A DNA stretch of 64,000 nucleotides. It comes from an uncultured Poribacteria bacterium (GTDB lineage: Bacteria; Poribacteria; WGA-4E; WGA-3G). A program made the position numbers and the translations under genes. The stretch lies in the NCBI GenBank assembly GCA_951813565.1, contig OX638351.1, positions 3,712,001 to 3,776,000 of the forward strand, given 5' to 3'. Positions 18,344 through 56,233 of this stretch are shown here, piece by piece (within the stretch, counting starts at the first letter, position 1; each line of letters opens with the position of its first letter). The notes under the pieces are model-generated. The model saw nothing but the letters and a program-made list of their open reading frames with translations, searched no databases and had not been told where the DNA came from.

Positions 18344-18704
18344 GGGTGTGTAAAGTTTTTGTAGAAATCCGCACAACTCCTATTGTAGGGGCGGGACTCT
18401 GTGCCCGCCCGTTGTTTGGAAACATCAGTTAAGGCGAGGCACAGGGACCCCGCCCATAGGCGTCAATTTAAGCACACAATTACCAGATTGCCTCTTGTGG
18501 GAGGGCTTTATAAGCCCGATTTATATGTATTTATCGGGGTTGAAAACCCCTCCCACAAGAGGGTATATCCTTAAATTGACGGCTATGGGGCACCAAATCA
18601 ACGGTATGAATGCCTTATGGCATTCCCCGGGACCCCGCTCTACAGTGGAAAACGCCGCGTAATCATTGCAAATTGAACCTATGTAACCAAATATTTACAC
18701 ACCC
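18344..18704. mobile_element. Composite MITE with a nested second MITE
   Basis: Outer TIR GGGTGTGTAAA / TTTACACACCC with 8-bp near-TSD TTGTGAAC/ATGTGAAC; inner element 18453-18589 with TIR CCCATAGGCGTCAATTTAAG / CTTAAATTGACGGCTATGGG. Confidence 0.75.
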
Positions 18705-49635: not shown

Positions 49636-49660
49636 GTTAACACTATAATTGGAGTTCAAA

Positions 49661-51316
49661 ATGCATATTAAATTTAAAATTCCCTTAATCTTATTCCTAA
49701 TTCTCTTTATTGCTATTTCTGCCCGTGCTCTCACTGATACAGAAATAGACGCACTCATCGGTAGTATGTCAGTTGAAGAAAAGGTCGGACAGCTTCTTAT
49801 TTTTGGCATAGGCGGTAAACAAGTAGGGACGGTTGCCAAAGCACATATTGTCAAACGTTTTGTTGGCAGTGTTATTCTTTATGATCGGAACGTCCAAGAC
49901 CCCGCACAGGTGGCAGCGTTAACGTTTGCACTCCAAAAAACTGCTCAAGAAACACCCAACGCTATTCCGTTGTTCATTGCAATTGACCAAGAAGGTGGCA
50001 CTGTCGCGCGGTTACGTAAGGGTGCTACAGTTTTACCCGGTAACCTTGCTTTAGGTGCTACACGATCTGTGGCATTGGCAGAAAAAGCGGGGGAACTCAC
50101 TGCTATTGAATTAGCAACTGTCGGCATTAACCTAAACTTTGCCCCCGTTATGGACGTTAATACCAATCCACACAATCCGGTTATAGGGGTTCGCGCCTAT
50201 GGAGAATCTCGAGACCTCGTCTCGCAACTTGGAACTGCTTACATCCGTGGATTGCAGCGATACGGTGTGCTTGCTACAGCCAAACACTTCCCCGGACACG
50301 GCGATACCAATGTCGATTCGCACAAAAAATTACCTATTGTTACACATAATAAAAAGCGGATCAATACCATTGAATTGGCACCTTTTCACGCTGCAATTAA
50401 AGCAGATGTAGCCGCTATTATGTCAGCACATATCCTCTATCCAGTACTCGACCGAGAGATGCCAGCAACGCTTTCATACCCAATACTCACGAGACTCCTC
50501 CGCCAACAGTTCGGTTTCGACGGACTTATTATCACAGATGATTTAGAAATGAAAGCGATTGATGACCAATACGAAACAGGCAACGCTGCTGTCTTAGCGA
50601 TTCAAGCGGGTGCTGATATGGTTATGGTTCCGTGGACTCTAAAAAAGCAGCAACGCGTTTATAACGCACTCCGCCAAGCTGTGCACCGCCGAGACATCAC
50701 TGAAAGACGACTCAACAACTCCGTGCGACGTATCTTAAAAAGCAAAGATGCTTGCGGTGCTTTTGATAAACCGTTAGTCCCTATAGAAAATCCAAATGCT
50801 ATAAACTCGCCTCTTGCCGTTGTGGGAAGCAGACAACACAGAGAAATCGCTCAAACTATCGCAACACAGGCGATAACCCTCGTCAAAAACACAGGCGGTA
50901 TACTCCCTTTGAGCCAAGAACCACAAGAACCTGTTTTAGTCATTAGTCCGGCACGTGAATTTTCTAACACTTTCCTCAAGGCACATACGGATATTACCCA
51001 CATAAACCCTGTTTTAATTCCCGCGCAATTGAACGCGAAGCAGTTAGCACCGGTACTGTTGCTATCTAAACCCTCGCTTATCGTAGCAGGAATTGTCAAC
51101 GCGCAGCAAGCCAACCTTATTCACGAATTGAGCCAAAAAACCGATATCCCGATCATCGTTATTTCGCTTAAATCGCCCTATCTACTTGGCAAATGCCCCG
51201 ATGTCGCCTGTGCTATCGCTGCATACGATGGCAACTACTTTTCTGTTGCTGCTGCTGTGGATGTGTTGTTAGGTAAAAGACAAGCAACAGGAAAATTGCC
51301 AGTTACAATTCCGTAA
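49661..51316 (+). CDS. nagZ: Beta-N-acetylhexosaminidase, glycoside hydrolase family 3
   Basis: IDQEGG, NFAPVMD, KHFPGHGDTNVDSH, ITDDLEM; signal peptide. Confidence 0.9.
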   Translation: MHIKFKIPLILFLILFIAISARALTDTEIDALIGSMSVEEKVGQLLIFGIGGKQVGTVAKAHIVKRFVGSVILYDRNVQDPAQVAALTFALQKTAQETPNAIPLFIAIDQEGGTVARLRKGATVLPGNLALGATRSVALAEKAGELTAIELATVGINLNFAPVMDVNTNPHNPVIGVRAYGESRDLVSQLGTAYIRGLQRYGVLATAKHFPGHGDTNVDSHKKLPIVTHNKKRINTIELAPFHAAIKADVAAIMSAHILYPVLDREMPATLSYPILTRLLRQQFGFDGLIITDDLEMKAIDDQYETGNAAVLAIQAGADMVMVPWTLKKQQRVYNALRQAVHRRDITERRLNNSVRRILKSKDACGAFDKPLVPIENPNAINSPLAVVGSRQHREIAQTIATQAITLVKNTGGILPLSQEPQEPVLVISPAREFSNTFLKAHTDITHINPVLIPAQLNAKQLAPVLLLSKPSLIVAGIVNAQQANLIHELSQKTDIPIIVISLKSPYLLGKCPDVACAIAAYDGNYFSVAAAVDVLLGKRQATGKLPVTIP

Positions 51317-51428
51317 AGCCAATTCGAGATACATCTTTTTGCAGGATATATTACCAATAAGACGCATCGAATATTGTAAAATCCAATAAAATCCCAATAT
51401 GTTTCCAATAACCCGCCACATATTCTAT

Positions 51429-51457
51429 TTGATTCACACAAAAAAGTATCGTATAAT
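51429..51457 (+). promoter_or_regulatory. sigma70-type promoter for the candidate ncRNA
   Basis: TTGATT-17bp-TATAAT, with no credible ORF downstream for over 1.2 kb. Confidence 0.65.
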
Positions 51458-51463
51458 TAACAC

Positions 51464-52330
51464 GTGTATAAGAATGCAACGCCCAATACGGCTACGCGAG
51501 CGTTCGATACTCTAAGAGGTGGTGAGGTTCCCTGAAAAGCGACCACACGGGAACACAACTTTTACAACCACAACAGTCGCTCGAAATCTCGATGGTGAGC
51601 CGTGGGCAGTCTCTTTGGATCCGCGACACCAAACGGAGACGGAACAACACCAACACGGAAAAAGATCGCGTCCATACTCAAGGAGTCGTGGGGAGTTTTC
51701 CAATGCCGAACGACACCAAATGGAAACTCAAATATGTCCGAAACGTCAATCTCAAATTGTTGGAGGGGTTTATAACCCGACAGCATCCTACTTTTGTGGG
51801 AGCGGTTTGTAACCCGATAATATCCCACATCTATTGTGGAAGGGGTTTGTAACCCGATAATATCCCACATCTATTGTGGGAGCGGTTTGTAACCCGATAA
51901 TATCCTACATCTATTGTGGGAGGGGTTTTCAACCCCGATAATATCCTACATCTATTGTGGGAGGGGTTTATAACCCCGATATATGAGATACGTTCTACAT
52001 ACCCACAGGAACATGTCGTTTAAAATCTCACTGGAGTTGCGGAGGTTCAACTGACACTAACGGCCTCAGAAACCGAACCAACCTGATCATAGTATCAAGT
52101 TGACACGTTGTCTCATGGCGCGCTTCACACCCGTGCTGGGAGCAGCCCAATGTCTACTTGAAATATGATGTCTTCCGTAGAAAAGGACCGTTAAAATCTC
52201 AAAGAGTCGTGGCGTTTCTTGAGACACCGCAGCATCTCAAAAACGAACCATCCACGTCAATTGCTGCGAACTCCCAGTCCGTAAAGCTGGAACTCGTGAA
52301 GCTGACTTTGGGCTTTGCATTCCGTTTTTT
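51464..52330 (+). ncRNA. Candidate large structured ncRNA with five tandem pseudoknot-like modules
   Basis: Promoter; closing stem GAATGCAAcGCCCAA..CGGCT.CGCGAG (51472-51500) with CTCGTG.AGCTG..TTGGGCtTTGCATTC (52293-52322); T7 tract; five GAG...CTC modules of identical topology but different, complementary sequences. Confidence 0.75.
51756..51981. repeat. Tandem ~40-bp REP-derived repeats (about 5 copies) inserted in the ncRNA
   Basis: TTGTGGGAGSGGTTTRTAACCCGATAATATCCYACATCTA units; same core as REP-like elements at ~18496, ~44991 and ~62928. Confidence 0.85.
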
Positions 52331-52336
52331 TGCGCC

Positions 52337-52547
52337 GATTGCTGCCTTATCTTTCACATTTGTAGGGCGTGGTCTCTGTGCCCCGCTGATTGCTGCCTTA
52401 TCTTTCACATTTGTAGGGCGTGGTCTCTGTGCCCCGCTGATTGCTGCCTTATCTTTCACATTTGTAGGGCGTGGTCTCTGTGCCCCGCCGATTGCTGCCT
52501 TATCTTTCACATTTGTAGGGTGGGGTCTCTGTGCCCCGCTGATTGCT
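52337..52547. repeat. Tandem 51-bp repeats x4 (REP-derived)
   Basis: GATTGCTGCCTTATCTTTCACATTTGTAGGGCGTGGTCTCTGTGCCCCGCT repeated without spacers. Confidence 0.9.
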
Positions 52548-52722
52548 GATATGTGCGTAGGTATAAAACTGGGTCAAACCCAACAGGAACAAAAAAACAC
52601 GAAAACACGTCCCATTCCTTATGCTGCTTGTCATTAGCACGTCCATGGGACGTAACAAACGTCCTACTAAACACGCAATAATTACATTGCTATTTTTTGG
52701 TGTTTATGTTAAAATAAATTGC

Positions 52723-52984: not shown

Positions 52985-53803
52985 ATGGGACAAAAAACAC
53001 GACATCTTCTCGGACTTTCAGGAGGAAAAGACAGCTCAGCACTTGCCGTTTACATGCGCGACAGAGTACCAGAGATGGAATACTTTTTTACTGATACCGG
53101 TAAAGAATTGCCAGAGACTTACGAGTTTTTGGACCGCCTTGAAGCATTCCTCGGCAAACCGATCGCACGTCTCAACGTGGAACGCGATTTTGACCATTGG
53201 TTGACGCTGCACGGTGGATTGCTGCCATCGTCTCAAGTCCGTTGGGGCACCATCAAACTGAAAATAAAACCTTTTGAGGCATACGTCGGTGAAGATAAAG
53301 CGTTCCACTACATCGGTATCCGTGCTGACGAAGATCGTGTCGGCTACAAACCGCTGAAAACGACATCCCACCAAAACATTCTCCCCAAATATCCATTCAA
53401 AGAGGATGGCATCACCAAAGAGGACGTTTTCCGCATCCTTGAGGAGAGCGGGCTTGGTTTGCCCGACTATTACAAGTGGCGCACGCGTTCTGGGTGTTAT
53501 TTCTGCTTTTTCCAACGCAAATCCGAATGGGTGGGACTCTTAGAGCAACACCCCGACCTTTTTGAACTTGCCAAAGAGTACGAGAAGTTTAATTCGGAAA
53601 CAGGTGAACGATTCACGTGGAGTCAGGGTAAAAGTTTAGAGGAGTTAGCAGATCCAGAACGGATAGCGCAAATCAAGGTAAATACTGAAAAGGCGAAGGC
53701 ATCTAAGAAAAAGGAAAAACCGAATCGCCGCCTGATAGAGATATTAACCGACGTTCACGATGATGAGGATGACGAGGAACCTTGTCTGATTTGCCATAAA
53801 TGA
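52985..53803 (+). CDS. PAPS-reductase-family protein (SspD/DndC-like)
   Basis: LSGGKDSSALA PP-loop, DTGKELPET, IGIRADE, RSGCYFCF, C-terminal CLIC. Confidence 0.8.
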   Translation: MGQKTRHLLGLSGGKDSSALAVYMRDRVPEMEYFFTDTGKELPETYEFLDRLEAFLGKPIARLNVERDFDHWLTLHGGLLPSSQVRWGTIKLKIKPFEAYVGEDKAFHYIGIRADEDRVGYKPLKTTSHQNILPKYPFKEDGITKEDVFRILEESGLGLPDYYKWRTRSGCYFCFFQRKSEWVGLLEQHPDLFELAKEYEKFNSETGERFTWSQGKSLEELADPERIAQIKVNTEKAKASKKKEKPNRRLIEILTDVHDDEDDEEPCLICHK

Positions 53804-53819
53804 TATTGTGGAAGTTCCA

Positions 53820-54710
53820 ATGGACAAAGAACAAATTCTTGAGAAATTTAACACCTTGCGTCAGTGGGGCAATAAAGGGGAGAGAGCACCACACAAACCC
53901 TTGTTAGTGCTTTACGCCATTGGCAAATTACTACGCGGTGAAGATAGACTTATTTCATACAAGGACGATATTGAGGAGAATCTAAAAAGTTTATTGAGAG
54001 AGTTCGGTCCGAGGCGTAATTCCTATTATGCACATTTCCCTTTTTGGCGATTGCAGAACGATGGAATCTGGGAAGTCACCGATAGCGAAAAAGTAGGTCT
54101 AACAGACAGTAAGGATGCTTACGTAACTGATCTGAGGAACTACAACGTTGCGGGTGGTTTTCATGAGACTATCTCCAAACAACTCCAAAACGATTCTGAA
54201 CTCACGGTTGATATTATTCACAGTCTTTTAGATGCTCATTTCCCCGCATCATTCCATGAGGATATCCTACAGGCAGTTGATATTGAACTGCCACTCCAAG
54301 CGTTTGAGACGAGAACGCGTCCATCCAATTTTCGTATAAACATTCTCAGAGCTTATGAATATAGGTGTGCAATTTGTGGTTTTGATGTAAAATTGGGTGA
54401 TTCGCCTGTTGCGTTAGAAGCATCTCATATCAAATGGCAAAAGGCAGGTGGACCTGATGAAGCTGTGAATGGATTGGCTCTCTGCTCACTCCACCATAAG
54501 CTGTTTGACCGTGGGGCATTCACATTGTCCAAGCAACGACATATTTTGGTATCAGACGATGCACACGGAACAACAGGGTTTCAGGAGTGGCTTATGGACT
54601 TCCACATGAAAAGAATAAAATTGCCGCAAAGACGATCCTATTATCCAGAGGAAGAGTTTATCGGTTGGCACGTCAGAGAGGTGTTTAGAGGGGATTACCG
54701 GGAATTGTAA
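53820..54710 (+). CDS. SBD-HNH phosphorothioate-dependent restriction endonuclease-like protein
   Basis: N-terminal RAPHKPLL...FPFWRLQNDGIW (sulfur-binding-domain-like); C-terminal CAICG...EASHIKW...NGLALCSLHHKLFDRG. Confidence 0.8.
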   Translation: MDKEQILEKFNTLRQWGNKGERAPHKPLLVLYAIGKLLRGEDRLISYKDDIEENLKSLLREFGPRRNSYYAHFPFWRLQNDGIWEVTDSEKVGLTDSKDAYVTDLRNYNVAGGFHETISKQLQNDSELTVDIIHSLLDAHFPASFHEDILQAVDIELPLQAFETRTRPSNFRINILRAYEYRCAICGFDVKLGDSPVALEASHIKWQKAGGPDEAVNGLALCSLHHKLFDRGAFTLSKQRHILVSDDAHGTTGFQEWLMDFHMKRIKLPQRRSYYPEEEFIGWHVREVFRGDYREL

Positions 54711-54770
54711 TGCTTGGATTTAGTGTCATAATTATTGTCAACAATAATTGAGCGTACAAGGAGAATCTCA

Positions 54771-55379
54771 ATGAACGAACAAGAAGGCGTTGATTTCCTA
54801 TTAGTGGAACATGCAAAAACCCTTGATTTAATACAACACTATGACAATATTAGAGTCTCCCACATGAGATTTGCGGCCTCCTACCACTCAGTAATCGGCA
54901 CTTTAGTATTTGCTATCTACCGATATTTATACTTTAATGATCAACAGTCAAATGCCGTAACACTTGAAGTGCCAATCTTTCTTGGTAGTTTTCTCATCAT
55001 TTCCTTTTTAGTTGGAATTGCCAGCGTTGCGATGCTTGCTCAAAATAGAAGTTATTTTGTTATAGCAGCAAGACAAGCAAACACTATCAGAGGTGCTTTG
55101 TTTAAACGAGGCAGCCTTGCTTCAAGTATTCAAAGTGTTTTTCCTACGAATCCAGATGAACCTAAAATGTTTAACCCTAAAAGTACACACTTAGTTACGC
55201 TTTTCTTGTTAGGAGTTGTTAACAGCATTTCGTTTGCTTTTGGTATTTTATTTTTTGTTATGGCGGCAAACTTTAGTTTATGGTTGTATTTCTTTCTGCC
55301 TATAACCTGCGGATTAATCGTTCTTATAGGACAGTTTCTTTTGGTCAAATTTGTCTTTTTAAAAGAAAAATCATCATGA
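54771..55379 (+). CDS. Hypothetical membrane protein (about 4 TM)
   Basis: AGGAG RBS, four hydrophobic segments; stop overlaps the next ATG (ATGA). Confidence 0.7.
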   Translation: MNEQEGVDFLLVEHAKTLDLIQHYDNIRVSHMRFAASYHSVIGTLVFAIYRYLYFNDQQSNAVTLEVPIFLGSFLIISFLVGIASVAMLAQNRSYFVIAARQANTIRGALFKRGSLASSIQSVFPTNPDEPKMFNPKSTHLVTLFLLGVVNSISFAFGILFFVMAANFSLWLYFFLPITCGLIVLIGQFLLVKFVFLKEKSS

Positions 55380-56233
55380 ATTCTAATCTCGAAATTGTTG
55401 TTTGGGATGTCCAGCACGGAAACGCTATTTACATGAAAACTCCTAACGGAAAGCACGTTATGTTTGACATTGGAACAGGAAGTTATGAGGATGGGCAGGA
55501 GTTTAGTCCGTTAAACTATCTAAAAGATGAATGGGATGTAGATTGCTTGCATTATCTTGTGATTTCTCATCCACATGCTGACCATATAAGCGACATAAGC
55601 AATATGTTTGATCTTGAACTCAAACCTAAAGCTTTAACACGTCCCAAAAACATTGATTCAGATCTGATAAGTAATTCTAATCAGGATGAATACTCAGACC
55701 TTGTGGATTTATATTTGGAATTGGACAGGACTTATATCAATCCAGTTTCTAGTGAATCAGATCCTTCAAATCCATCTAACAATGGCGAGGTAGAAATAGT
55801 TTCTTTTTGGCAAGACGAGAGTGGAACGAGCAACCTTAATAACTATAGTATCGTTGCAGTGATAGAATACGCGGGTGAGAAGATTATTATTCCGGGTGAT
55901 ATTGAAGAAGCAGGTTGGAAAGTATTACTAGAACGTGAAGATTTTCAACAAGCTATAGAAGATACTACTATTTTTGTTGCATCCCATCATGGAAGAAAGG
56001 CAGGATATCATAGTAATGTTTTTGATTATTTTGAACCTGATGTCGTGATAGTTTCTGATGGGAGGTATTCTGATACAAGTGTTACCGATAGATATCGGAA
56101 CTATGCTCAAGGCTTTGAGGTAAAAAGCAGAAGCACTGAAGAATCAGAAACGAGATATGTGCTTACGACTCGCAATGATGGAGTAATCTATATTAGAGTT
56201 GAAGATACCAGTAAGGTGATTACAATAAAGTAA
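55376..56233 (+). CDS. Metallo-beta-lactamase-fold (ComEC/Rec2-like) hydrolase
   Basis: DVQHGNA, FDIG, SHPHADH, NNYS, PGDIE, SHHG. Confidence 0.85.
   Translation: MNSNLEIVVWDVQHGNAIYMKTPNGKHVMFDIGTGSYEDGQEFSPLNYLKDEWDVDCLHYLVISHPHADHISDISNMFDLELKPKALTRPKNIDSDLISNSNQDEYSDLVDLYLELDRTYINPVSSESDPSNPSNNGEVEIVSFWQDESGTSNLNNYSIVAVIEYAGEKIIIPGDIEEAGWKVLLEREDFQQAIEDTTIFVASHHGRKAGYHSNVFDYFEPDVVIVSDGRYSDTSVTDRYRNYAQGFEVKSRSTEESETRYVLTTRNDGVIYIRVEDTSKVITIK

Follow-up and report, generated by a model that had tools for sequence, protein, structure and literature searches.

Introduction

Sponge RNAs, such as CsrB and RsmZ for CsrA and CrcZ for Hfq, are stand-alone, strongly transcribed molecules in which one binding unit, a short GGA or A-rich motif in a simple hairpin, is repeated, with copy and unit numbers that vary between species. 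Some of the large RNAs GOLLD, ROOL, OLE and raiA are associated with mobile DNA. The STAXI motif (RF01728), listed for Enterobacteriales and of unknown function, contains two or three repeats of a pseudoknot and occurs close to mobile-DNA genes (Weinberg et al. 2010, PMC2864571). STAXI is the nearest published architecture to the element analyzed here, a predicted non-coding RNA encoded between positions 51429 and 52331 of a 64,000-nucleotide stretch of DNA from an uncultured Poribacteria bacterium (assembly GCA_951813565.1, contig OX638351.1, positions 3,712,001 to 3,776,000 of the forward strand; hereafter the window).

This RNA very probably represents a new, undescribed family of large non-coding RNAs that occurs only in a single family of Candidatus Poribacteria. 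Taken as a whole, we tentatively read it as a new transposon-borne non-coding RNA family acting as a multivalent scaffold or decoy, a statement to which we assign a probability of about 0.4. An earlier note on the locus, made from the sequence, had proposed an undescribed stand-alone multi-domain non-coding RNA, and homologues, shuffled controls, Rfam and the literature all agree with that proposal. Throughout, G000 is the genome of the window, other G numbers are related genomes, and L numbers are loci.

Results

Architecture of the RNA at the window locus

The RNA lies within ~1.3 kb that contain no credible coding frame and are flanked by a GH3 glycosidase gene (49649-51316) on one side and a small open reading frame (ORF) on the other. 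Its repeated unit, the module, consists of an outer helix P1, an inner hairpin P2 and a pseudoknot of 5-8 bp formed by the P2 loop with the strand 3' of P1. Five such modules, M1 to M5, stand in a row, followed by a hairpin, H6, and enclosed by a terminal helix. The promoter, the terminal stem of ~25 bp and the run of seven T residues described in the earlier note are all found where it had placed them, and H6 is an addition to its model. The parts of the locus are the following.

51380..51411, plus strand: three (T/C)CCAATA boxes, ~10-11 nt spacing, 5' of the -35 hexamer, read in the sequence.
51429..51457, plus strand: sigma-70-type promoter TTGATT-17-TATAAT, 10/12 consensus positions, predicted from the sequence.
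51472..51500, plus strand: terminal (closing) helix, 5' arm, pairing with 52293-52322.
51516..51590, plus strand: module M1; P1 51519-51523/51567-51571, P2 51527-51532/51549-51554, pseudoknot 51538-51543/51576-51581.
51597..51679, plus strand: module M2; P1 51600-51604/51654-51658, P2 51609-51618/51629-51640, pseudoknot 51622-51626/51666-51670.
51683..52029, plus strand: module M3; P1 51688-51692/52002-52006, P2 51693-51702/51721-51729, pseudoknot 51709-51715/52014-52020.
51756..51981, plus strand: tandem 40-nt repeat, 5.7 copies, a dispersed element resembling repetitive extragenic palindromes (REP-like), inside the M3 long loop (Tandem Repeats Finder).
52034..52200, plus strand: module M4; P1 52038-52043/52174-52179, P2 52044-52054/52066-52079, pseudoknot 52058-52063/52188-52193.
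52204..52273, plus strand: module M5; P1 52208-52212/52252-52256, P2 52213-52224/52235-52245, pseudoknot 52228-52234/52262-52268.
52274..52290, plus strand: hairpin H6, CCAG-UCCGUAAAG-CUGG (CCAG-N9-CTGG), conserved.
52293..52322, plus strand: terminal helix, 3' arm, pairing with 51472-51500, present in the alignment and in the minimum-free-energy (MFE) fold.
52325..52331, plus strand: U-tract T7, read in the sequence.

Each module was tested by searching for the best-scoring fold of a fixed topology, with P2 nested within P1 and the loop of P2 base-paired to the strand 3' of P1. The best solution consisted of the helices named in the earlier note in 5/5 modules, confirming that every one of them exists, and no dinucleotide shuffle reached the score of any module (M1 0/200, M2 0/200, M3 0/60, M4 0/60, M5 0/200), so that the complementarity which the note had reported also stands against shuffled controls. 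For the whole RNA, the MFE is -284.4 kcal/mol, compared with -239.8 +/- 6.9 kcal/mol in shuffles (z = -6.5; 0/20 shuffles as good), and the terminal helix, with 8+6+5+6 = 25 bp, is present in the unconstrained MFE fold.

The promoter scan is by itself non-significant (4 sites vs 4.1 expected), and -35 and -10 boxes stand at the same position in 21/21 copies compared. The (T/C)CCAATA boxes, possibly a regulator-binding or UP-like region judging from their sequence and position, also lie 5' of the promoter in the G029, G030, G024, G012, G036 and G023 copies, and none were seen in the G005 and G021 copies. At the other end, T7 is likely, from its sequence, to mark the RNA 3' end or a terminator tail; a T-rich run follows the terminal helix in most copies of genus g1, and copies of genus g9 carry an extra hairpin there instead.

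The earlier note had drawn M3 as a single module over 51683-52029. Its helices hold, and most of that span does not belong to the module: the 40-nt repeat array is an insertion that lies outside the conserved RNA and makes up most of M3, whose long loop reaches 272 nt. All 47 other matches of the query in its own genome fall within the repeat-bearing part (query positions 331-530), and a near-identical metagenome copy (L119) is ~120 nt shorter at the array. Further copies of this 40-nt palindromic repeat lie at ~725-815 and 18492-18561 of the window (coordinates converted from genome positions).

Comparative evidence for the fold

Homologues were gathered by BLAST and with R1, a covariance model built from M1 and M2, and 28 distinct full-length copies were collected for alignment. 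Over M1 and M2 (18 distinct sequences, 183-column alignment), 97.4% of cells are paired, compared with 30-45% after a shift of the partners by 1-3 columns, and seven pairs have changed on both sides, compared with at most two in the slid controls. The covariation score is 0.177, against at most 0.053 after sliding, and was reached by 0/500 column shuffles, counts of this kind not being probabilities because the sequences are related.

Across the 28 full copies, compensatory double changes occur at 26/88 pairs of the terminal helix, M1, M2, M5 and H6. In the alignment of M1 and M2, the double changes lie in P1 and the pseudoknot of M1 and in P1 and P2 of M2, whose pseudoknot is invariant. In the 28 copies, they affect 8/25 pairs of the terminal helix and all three helices of M5, where the pseudoknot reads CGCAGCA/TGCTGCG, CACAGC/GCTGTG, GCAGCT/AGCTGC or GCAGGAC/GTTCTGC in different copies. 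H6 pairing is kept in 26-27 of the 27-28 copies that have letters at each of its four pairs. In M4, a double change distinguishes the pseudoknot of the G012 orthologue (ATCGG/CCGAT) from that of G000 (AACGG/CCGTT), and M3 orthologues keep the topology with other helices, for example CCGTTG/CAACGG and GATGACA/TGTCATC in G005 and G021. More broadly, of 70 module segments taken from 16 elements in two genera, 67 yielded a P1/P2/pseudoknot solution, with differing helix sequences; three yielded none, and some of the solutions, such as that for M1 of G021a, are off register. Helices were compared copy by copy because the MAFFT alignment of M5 across subgroups is structurally inconsistent. Since pseudoknotted helices show compensatory changes in two genera while loops and insertions drift, we infer selection on a folded single strand.

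These observations bear directly on whether the locus encodes a functional RNA at all. Its structures could instead be DNA-level features of a transposon-derived repeat, such as transposition or replication hairpins, or the whole could be a neutral, decaying passenger; the element is multi-copy, patchy and dispensable, with truncated copies, its host genomes are full of palindromic repeats, and G-U cells are not clearly more frequent than A-C cells. Even so, we consider this very improbable, given that the helices were kept by compensatory substitution between genera while the loops drifted, and that the consensus promoter and the U-tract are kept in copies. Besides, DDE transposons of the group discussed below need terminal repeats alone, and the autonomous insertion sequence (IS) shares nothing else with the cassette in which the RNA gene resides.

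One element of the earlier model is not supported by the comparison. GAG and CTC had been taken as closing each module with 3 bp; the corresponding pairs are A-C in 15/28 copies for M2 and mostly unpaired for M5. An alternative local hairpin across the junction shows one compensatory change (CTC/GAG to CTT/AAG) and is broken at the next junction. GAG and CUC are treated here as conserved sequence, not as a proven helix. The junction between modules, AAAAUCUC-N3-6-GAGUCGUGG, is nonetheless the most conserved repeated motif of the family, and it recurs 5' of M1 (ACUC-UAA-GAGG).

Such conservation would fit a precursor, an array cut at these junctions, by a host endoribonuclease or by itself, into active single pseudoknot RNAs serving as small regulators or protein-bound units, much as type III antitoxins are processed. 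The motif is present ahead of M1 as well as between modules, the modules fold autonomously and vary in number, and triplets whose pairing is unsupported may be recognition sequences. We regard this as unlikely, however: the helix at the ends is kept with compensatory changes in 28/28 full copies, which would be pointless for a mere precursor, and no self-cleaving ribozyme of Rfam matches, the resemblance of M1 to a hammerhead being superficial.

Copies and distribution of the family

Members of the family measure ~0.33 to 1.0 kb and contain 3 to 6 modules: three in the G036 and G023b copies; four in those of G005, G021, G010, G030, G024, G012 and G061; five in G000 and G029; and six in most g9 copies and in G023a. 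No full copy lacks the terminal helix, M1, M2, the last module or H6, and M1 is the most conserved module, including its loops. Insertions of dispersed repeats, found in M2 (six copies in G005, two in G021) and in the G000 M3, always fall in the loop that separates P2 from the 3' strand of P1, and this loop accommodates up to ~290 nt. A separate observation concerns the insert in the M2 long loop of L030, L041-L043, L090 and L094 (G005) and of L029 and L045 (G021), which is ~75-105 nt long, resembles a miniature inverted-repeat transposable element (MITE), starts with TACTATTTCTAA and includes TTTGTAGCACAAAC; the same MITE-like insert truncates M1 of decayed copies in G031 and G021.

The number of copies per genome ranges from 1 to about 20, with 22 model matches in G005 (~16 full), 14 in G127, 10 in G096 and 6 in G021, and truncated copies occur in G017, G031, G021, G074, G095 and G077. 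A crude regular-expression search, which also missed true modules, gave no convincing solitary modules elsewhere in G000.

Within the genus, the element is present in 14/40 genomes and absent from 26. A phylum sample of 150 other genomes comprised 99 of the same Poribacteria family and 51 of eight other families; the element occurs in 28/99 of the former (genus g1 12/37, genus g9 16/57) and in 0/51 of the latter. Beyond this phylum sample, 185,579 species, each represented by one genome, were scanned for the exact pattern; of the 21 stretches returned, 20 are titled 'Candidatus Poribacteria' and the 21st was unconfirmed by the nhmmer profile. The exact-pattern scan of viral contigs gave 0 matches, and a metagenome scan gave four, three of which the nhmmer profile confirmed.

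Relation to known RNA families and coding sequence

In line with the earlier note, which had recognized no hallmark of tmRNA, RNase P, SRP, group I or II introns or hammerheads, Rfam 15 returned 0 matches at the gathering score for the 64-kb window and for six homologous loci from two genera. The families covered include STAXI, transfer-messenger RNA (tmRNA), ribonuclease P (RNase P), 6S, hammerhead, HDV-like, pistol, twister, GOLLD, ROOL, OLE, raiA, HEARO and the group II intron. The sole match at E<=10 was to snR76 (E 3.3, 16.5 bits vs 55), on the opposite strand and outside the RNA. Identity with tmRNA or RNase P RNA was rejected, as the genome's tmRNA (178 bits) and RNase P RNA (282 bits) lie at other loci and the element is multi-copy and patchy. 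We also observed a second, short tmRNA-model match of 64 bits outside the window (G000:C1:4711769-4711854). No 6S RNA match was obtained, in a search whose control found 6S in just 5/14 genomes. Hammerhead and HDV-like readings of the modules are ruled out by topology and by the missing Rfam match; in M1, CUGANGA...GAAA superficially resembles a hammerhead core, the strand before CUGA pairs inside the would-be stem II, and the motif is missing from other modules.

Five ORFs overlap the RNA, and none matches a Pfam family below E 0.09; module number and lengths differ between copies, which bears on its non-coding status. The MLTQY... ORF that follows the G005 copies was considered as a conserved small protein and discarded, as it varies from 68 to 149 aa and is missing from other genomes. 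In the literature on Poribacteria non-coding RNAs and pseudoknots (supplements of cited papers excluded), no description of this RNA was found.

A transposon cassette carries the RNA gene

In G005, the repeated unit spans about positions -270 to +1150, counted from the RNA start, and is bounded by inverted copies of GGGTGTGTAAAGTTTTTG(G/T)CA. The resulting cassette is ~1.35-1.7 kb long and has no transposase inside, and its inverted ends, 18-21 nt long, are identical to the ends of a 1459-bp IS. In the G005f cassette, the terminal 26-29 nt are 96-100% identical to both IS ends, and no further significant similarity exists between cassette and IS. The IS is present in G000 in 12 copies of 1457-1459 bp, one of them at G000:C1:4479-5937 (locus L172, outside the window), and its 439-aa ORF is an ISKra4-family transposase (NF033572, E 2e-71, 241 bits vs cut-off 205). 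The IS end sequence occurs in 40/40 genomes of the genus, 8 to 461 times each, compared with 0-2 times for a reversed control. As a side observation, G000 has 152 end-like sites in all, many of them paired 170-630 bp apart, and by their arrangement these pairs look like MITEs.

Among the 23 RNA copies examined, eight have both ends, seven the left end alone, one the right end alone and seven neither. Target duplications flank 4/8 two-ended cassettes, of 8 bp in G005b, G005f and G012b (AAGGTTAC, AAGTCCAG and CTAAAAGA) and of 7 nt in G021c; none was found in G005g, G021b and G012a, and that of L092 is imperfect. In G127, of genus g9, the similarity between copies begins precisely at the same left repeat for 4/5 of them, and inverted repeats were found in 0/5 G096 copies. 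A resemblance of the M1 loop to the transposon end was dismissed, the shared 9-mer being missing from G005 copies.

A -35/-10-like pair starts 15-17 nt past the right end in 8/10 cassettes, compared with 92/2000 random positions, and also in 4/12 autonomous IS copies, and the RNA gene is oriented toward this downstream host promoter. Prokaryotic Mutator-like elements are described as having inverted repeats of 18-39 bp and direct repeats of 8 or 9 bp, TnGBS as inserting 15-17 bp upstream of sigma-A promoters, and ISLre2 and several ISKra4 members as likewise lying upstream of such promoters (PMC3942029). Because the inverted repeats, the 8-bp duplications and the promoter-proximal insertion agree with the traits described there, we take the cassette to be a non-autonomous ISKra4-group element. 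The RNA gene and its promoter are the sole shared content of five cassettes from G005, G021, G012 and G127; the gene is thus the only conserved cargo of a non-autonomous element of this Mutator-like DDE group. Carriage by a transposon accounts for the 1 to about 20 copies per genome and for the patchy distribution.

In most copies, the left and right flanks of the 20-kb loci (L053-L069) map to distant places in G000, and the copies therefore sit at synteny breakpoints. No exact insertion boundaries could be obtained from empty G000 sites, the intergenic regions being too diverged. Separately, in two other genomes the RNA is bordered by the same G000 segment (~395.6-398.7 kb), which lies on one side of it in the first genome and on the other side in the second.

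The placement of the cassettes raises the possibility of action in cis, in which a strong promoter followed by a stable terminating structure acts as a transcriptional buffer, or the RNA as an exoribonuclease-resistant 5' block, and expression of the downstream gene is shaped in either case. Exoribonuclease-resistant RNAs block 5'-3' exonucleases by a ring-like pseudoknot fold, and those of plant viruses have an apical loop paired with the strand 3' of its stem, a topology like that of these modules. Position and orientation relative to host promoters in 8/10 cassettes are consistent with such a role, as is a first downstream ORF, within 2.5 kb, that is co-oriented in 12/17 copies (ORFs of >=70 aa, possibly including spurious small ones). 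A buffer, however, could do without 3 to 6 pseudoknot modules preserved through compensatory change in two genera, and 7/23 copies, as well as the window copy, lack cassette ends and yet have an intact RNA, which makes a cis element a doubtful explanation.

The genes around the copies are unrelated, and the 111 flanking ORFs of 17 copies share no family. This matters for a further suggestion of the earlier note, an antitoxin, which would here be a type III-like RNA whose tandem pseudoknot units neutralize an endoribonuclease toxin. A tandem pseudoknot array with a terminator is indeed found in ToxI-type RNAs, and mobile carriage would suit an addiction module. Yet 0/12 downstream ORFs match a toxin model (PADLOC), the flanking ORFs have no family in common, the small ORF after G005 copies varies in length and is not kept in other genomes, and the units are 67-100 nt long and divergent in sequence. 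An antitoxin with a cis-encoded toxin is thereby largely refuted, and we give a type III-like antitoxin of any kind the least credence of the explanations considered.

Sequences downstream of the RNA

Directly 3' of the RNA, a 51-nt unit is repeated 4.2 times (96% matches) at 52333-52548 of the window; within it lies a 'TTGTAG + GC-rich hairpin' element found scattered through these genomes, and the G029 copy has one related unit in the same place. At 52570-52664, a small hairpin, TGGGT-CAA-ACCCA, precedes three direct ACGTCC sites, and the palindrome ACGTCC-ATG-GGACGT includes one of these. Hairpin and direct sites are arranged alike 3' of other copies, with other motifs, namely ACGTCAC (G030, G024, G036, G092, G095), CGTACC (G005), ACGTACA (G021b, G021c) and TTCATAGCA (G127, G135, G077). 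From its layout, this segment resembles an array of operators or iterons whose specificity has been swapped, and no cognate protein gene was seen. Further downstream, at 52985-56233, a defence islet encodes an SspD-like phosphoadenosine phosphosulfate (PAPS)-reductase protein (PADLOC SspD, E 7e-117), a phosphorothioate-dependent HNH restriction endonuclease (NF045808, E 6.5e-105) and a PDC-M48B metallo-beta-lactamase-fold protein; SspABC was not noticed beside these genes.

Discussion

A possible scaffold or decoy

As for mechanism, the likeliest of the readings considered, though short of an even chance, is that the RNA acts in trans as a stable, multivalent protein scaffold or decoy. On this proposal, it would be transcribed from its own sigma-70-type promoter, and the ~25-bp terminal helix would clamp both ends and, together with the compact pseudoknots, yield a long-lived, protected molecule. 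Fold and junction motif would be common to all modules, such that several copies of one protein could be bound or titrated, with the number of modules setting the binding capacity. Because their number varies, the modules may be regarded as semi-redundant. A scaffold with one unit for each partner is favored over a single integrated machine because module number varies, big loop insertions are tolerated and one junction motif is repeated; in its favor we count, as indirect evidence, that the number ranges from 3 to 6 while M1, M2, M5, H6 and the clamp are always kept, and that long loops take insertions without helix loss.

Several observations weigh against a scaffold or decoy. Truncated copies exist, and the RNA is therefore dispensable; its high copy number could result from transposon spread rather than from benefit. 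The window's own copy has no inverted repeats, and its M1 loop reads CUGAAAA, where 26 other aligned copies keep G at the deviating position; given also its 226-nt repeat insertion, this copy could be decaying. Wobble cells, 101 G-U vs 81 A-C, leave the strand undecided, and its assignment therefore rests on the promoter and the U-tract. A search of sequencing runs found the stretch in six runs from two studies, none recorded as RNA, and no transcript or transcript ends were seen. This negative, the truncated copies and the wobble counts weigh on every functional reading alike. Regarding partners, no protein gene co-occurs with the RNA inside the cassettes, CsrA (PF02599) has no match in the 95%-complete genome, and Hfq (PF17209) stays below threshold (21.7 bits vs cut-off 27), so that the two classic sponge targets are, on these profile searches, apparently out.

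A bolder extension, which we consider rather unlikely, is a bacterial 'Pack-MULE' DDE lineage that persists through its one cargo. The modular pseudoknot RNA would then serve the element itself, for example by binding the Mutator-like transposase or a host factor at targeted promoters, or by forming an RNA-only or ribonucleoprotein assembly sized by the number of modules.

If the RNA is expressed, it introduces a new architecture for large bacterial non-coding RNAs, a chain of paralogous pseudoknot modules, 3 to 6 of them and evolving in number, with its ends clamped. The comparative support is unusually clean, with dozens of paralogous and orthologous modules, and these natural variants make the fold directly testable. 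Additionally, a Mutator-like bacterial transposon is shown to be able to carry a structured RNA gene as its sole conserved passenger and to place it beside host promoters, tying mobile-element biology to RNA structure in uncultured sponge symbionts; the cassette is a ready means of studying how an RNA may profit a transposon. Should the RNA truly serve the element, it would define a new class of transposon-encoded structured RNA, unrelated to IS200/IS605, IS110 or IscB guide RNAs.

Comparison with described systems

The Poribacteria RNA shares with STAXI a repeated pseudoknot and an association with mobile DNA. It differs in that the STAXI model does not match it and in that the accessible description of STAXI includes neither a terminal clamp helix nor a promoter of its own, whereas the Poribacteria modules are 67-100 nt or more in length, have an extra outer helix, come in 3 to 6 units and travel in a DDE-transposon vehicle.

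With the ToxI, CptI and TenpI arrays, the RNA has in common tandem pseudoknot units and a terminator, often on mobile DNA. The repeats of type III antitoxins are near-identical and much shorter, at a few tens of nucleotides. In the Poribacteria RNA, by contrast, there is no adjacent toxin gene, the units are not near-identical, and the whole array is enclosed by a terminal helix; modules span 67-347 nt with differing helices, and Tandem Repeats Finder reported no array over the modules.

The likeness to GOLLD, ROOL, OLE and raiA lies in size class, rich conserved structure and the lack of a known function (PMC12286853, PMC12968392). There is no Rfam homology with them, and those RNAs are single integrated folds, unlike the variable-number chain of paralogous modules described here. 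CsrB, RsmZ and CrcZ resemble it as stand-alone RNAs with a repeated unit and with varying copy and unit numbers; the difference is that CsrA was not found, and Hfq is not clearly present, in this genome.

As for the vehicle, mobile insertion cassettes and MITEs, plant Pack-MULEs and the ISKra4 group (PMC3942029) parallel our cassette in lacking a transposase, in bearing the inverted repeats of a resident IS, in carrying a passenger, in 8-bp duplications and in lying upstream of sigma-A-type promoters. Among the papers found on such cassettes, titles and abstracts name protein genes as passengers, whereas the sole conserved passenger of the Poribacteria cassette is a structured RNA gene, and a literature search, not exhaustive, found no case of such a passenger. 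The vehicle is thus of a known kind, a mobile insertion cassette of Pack-MULE-like type, and its structured-RNA cargo is the part for which this search gave no precedent.

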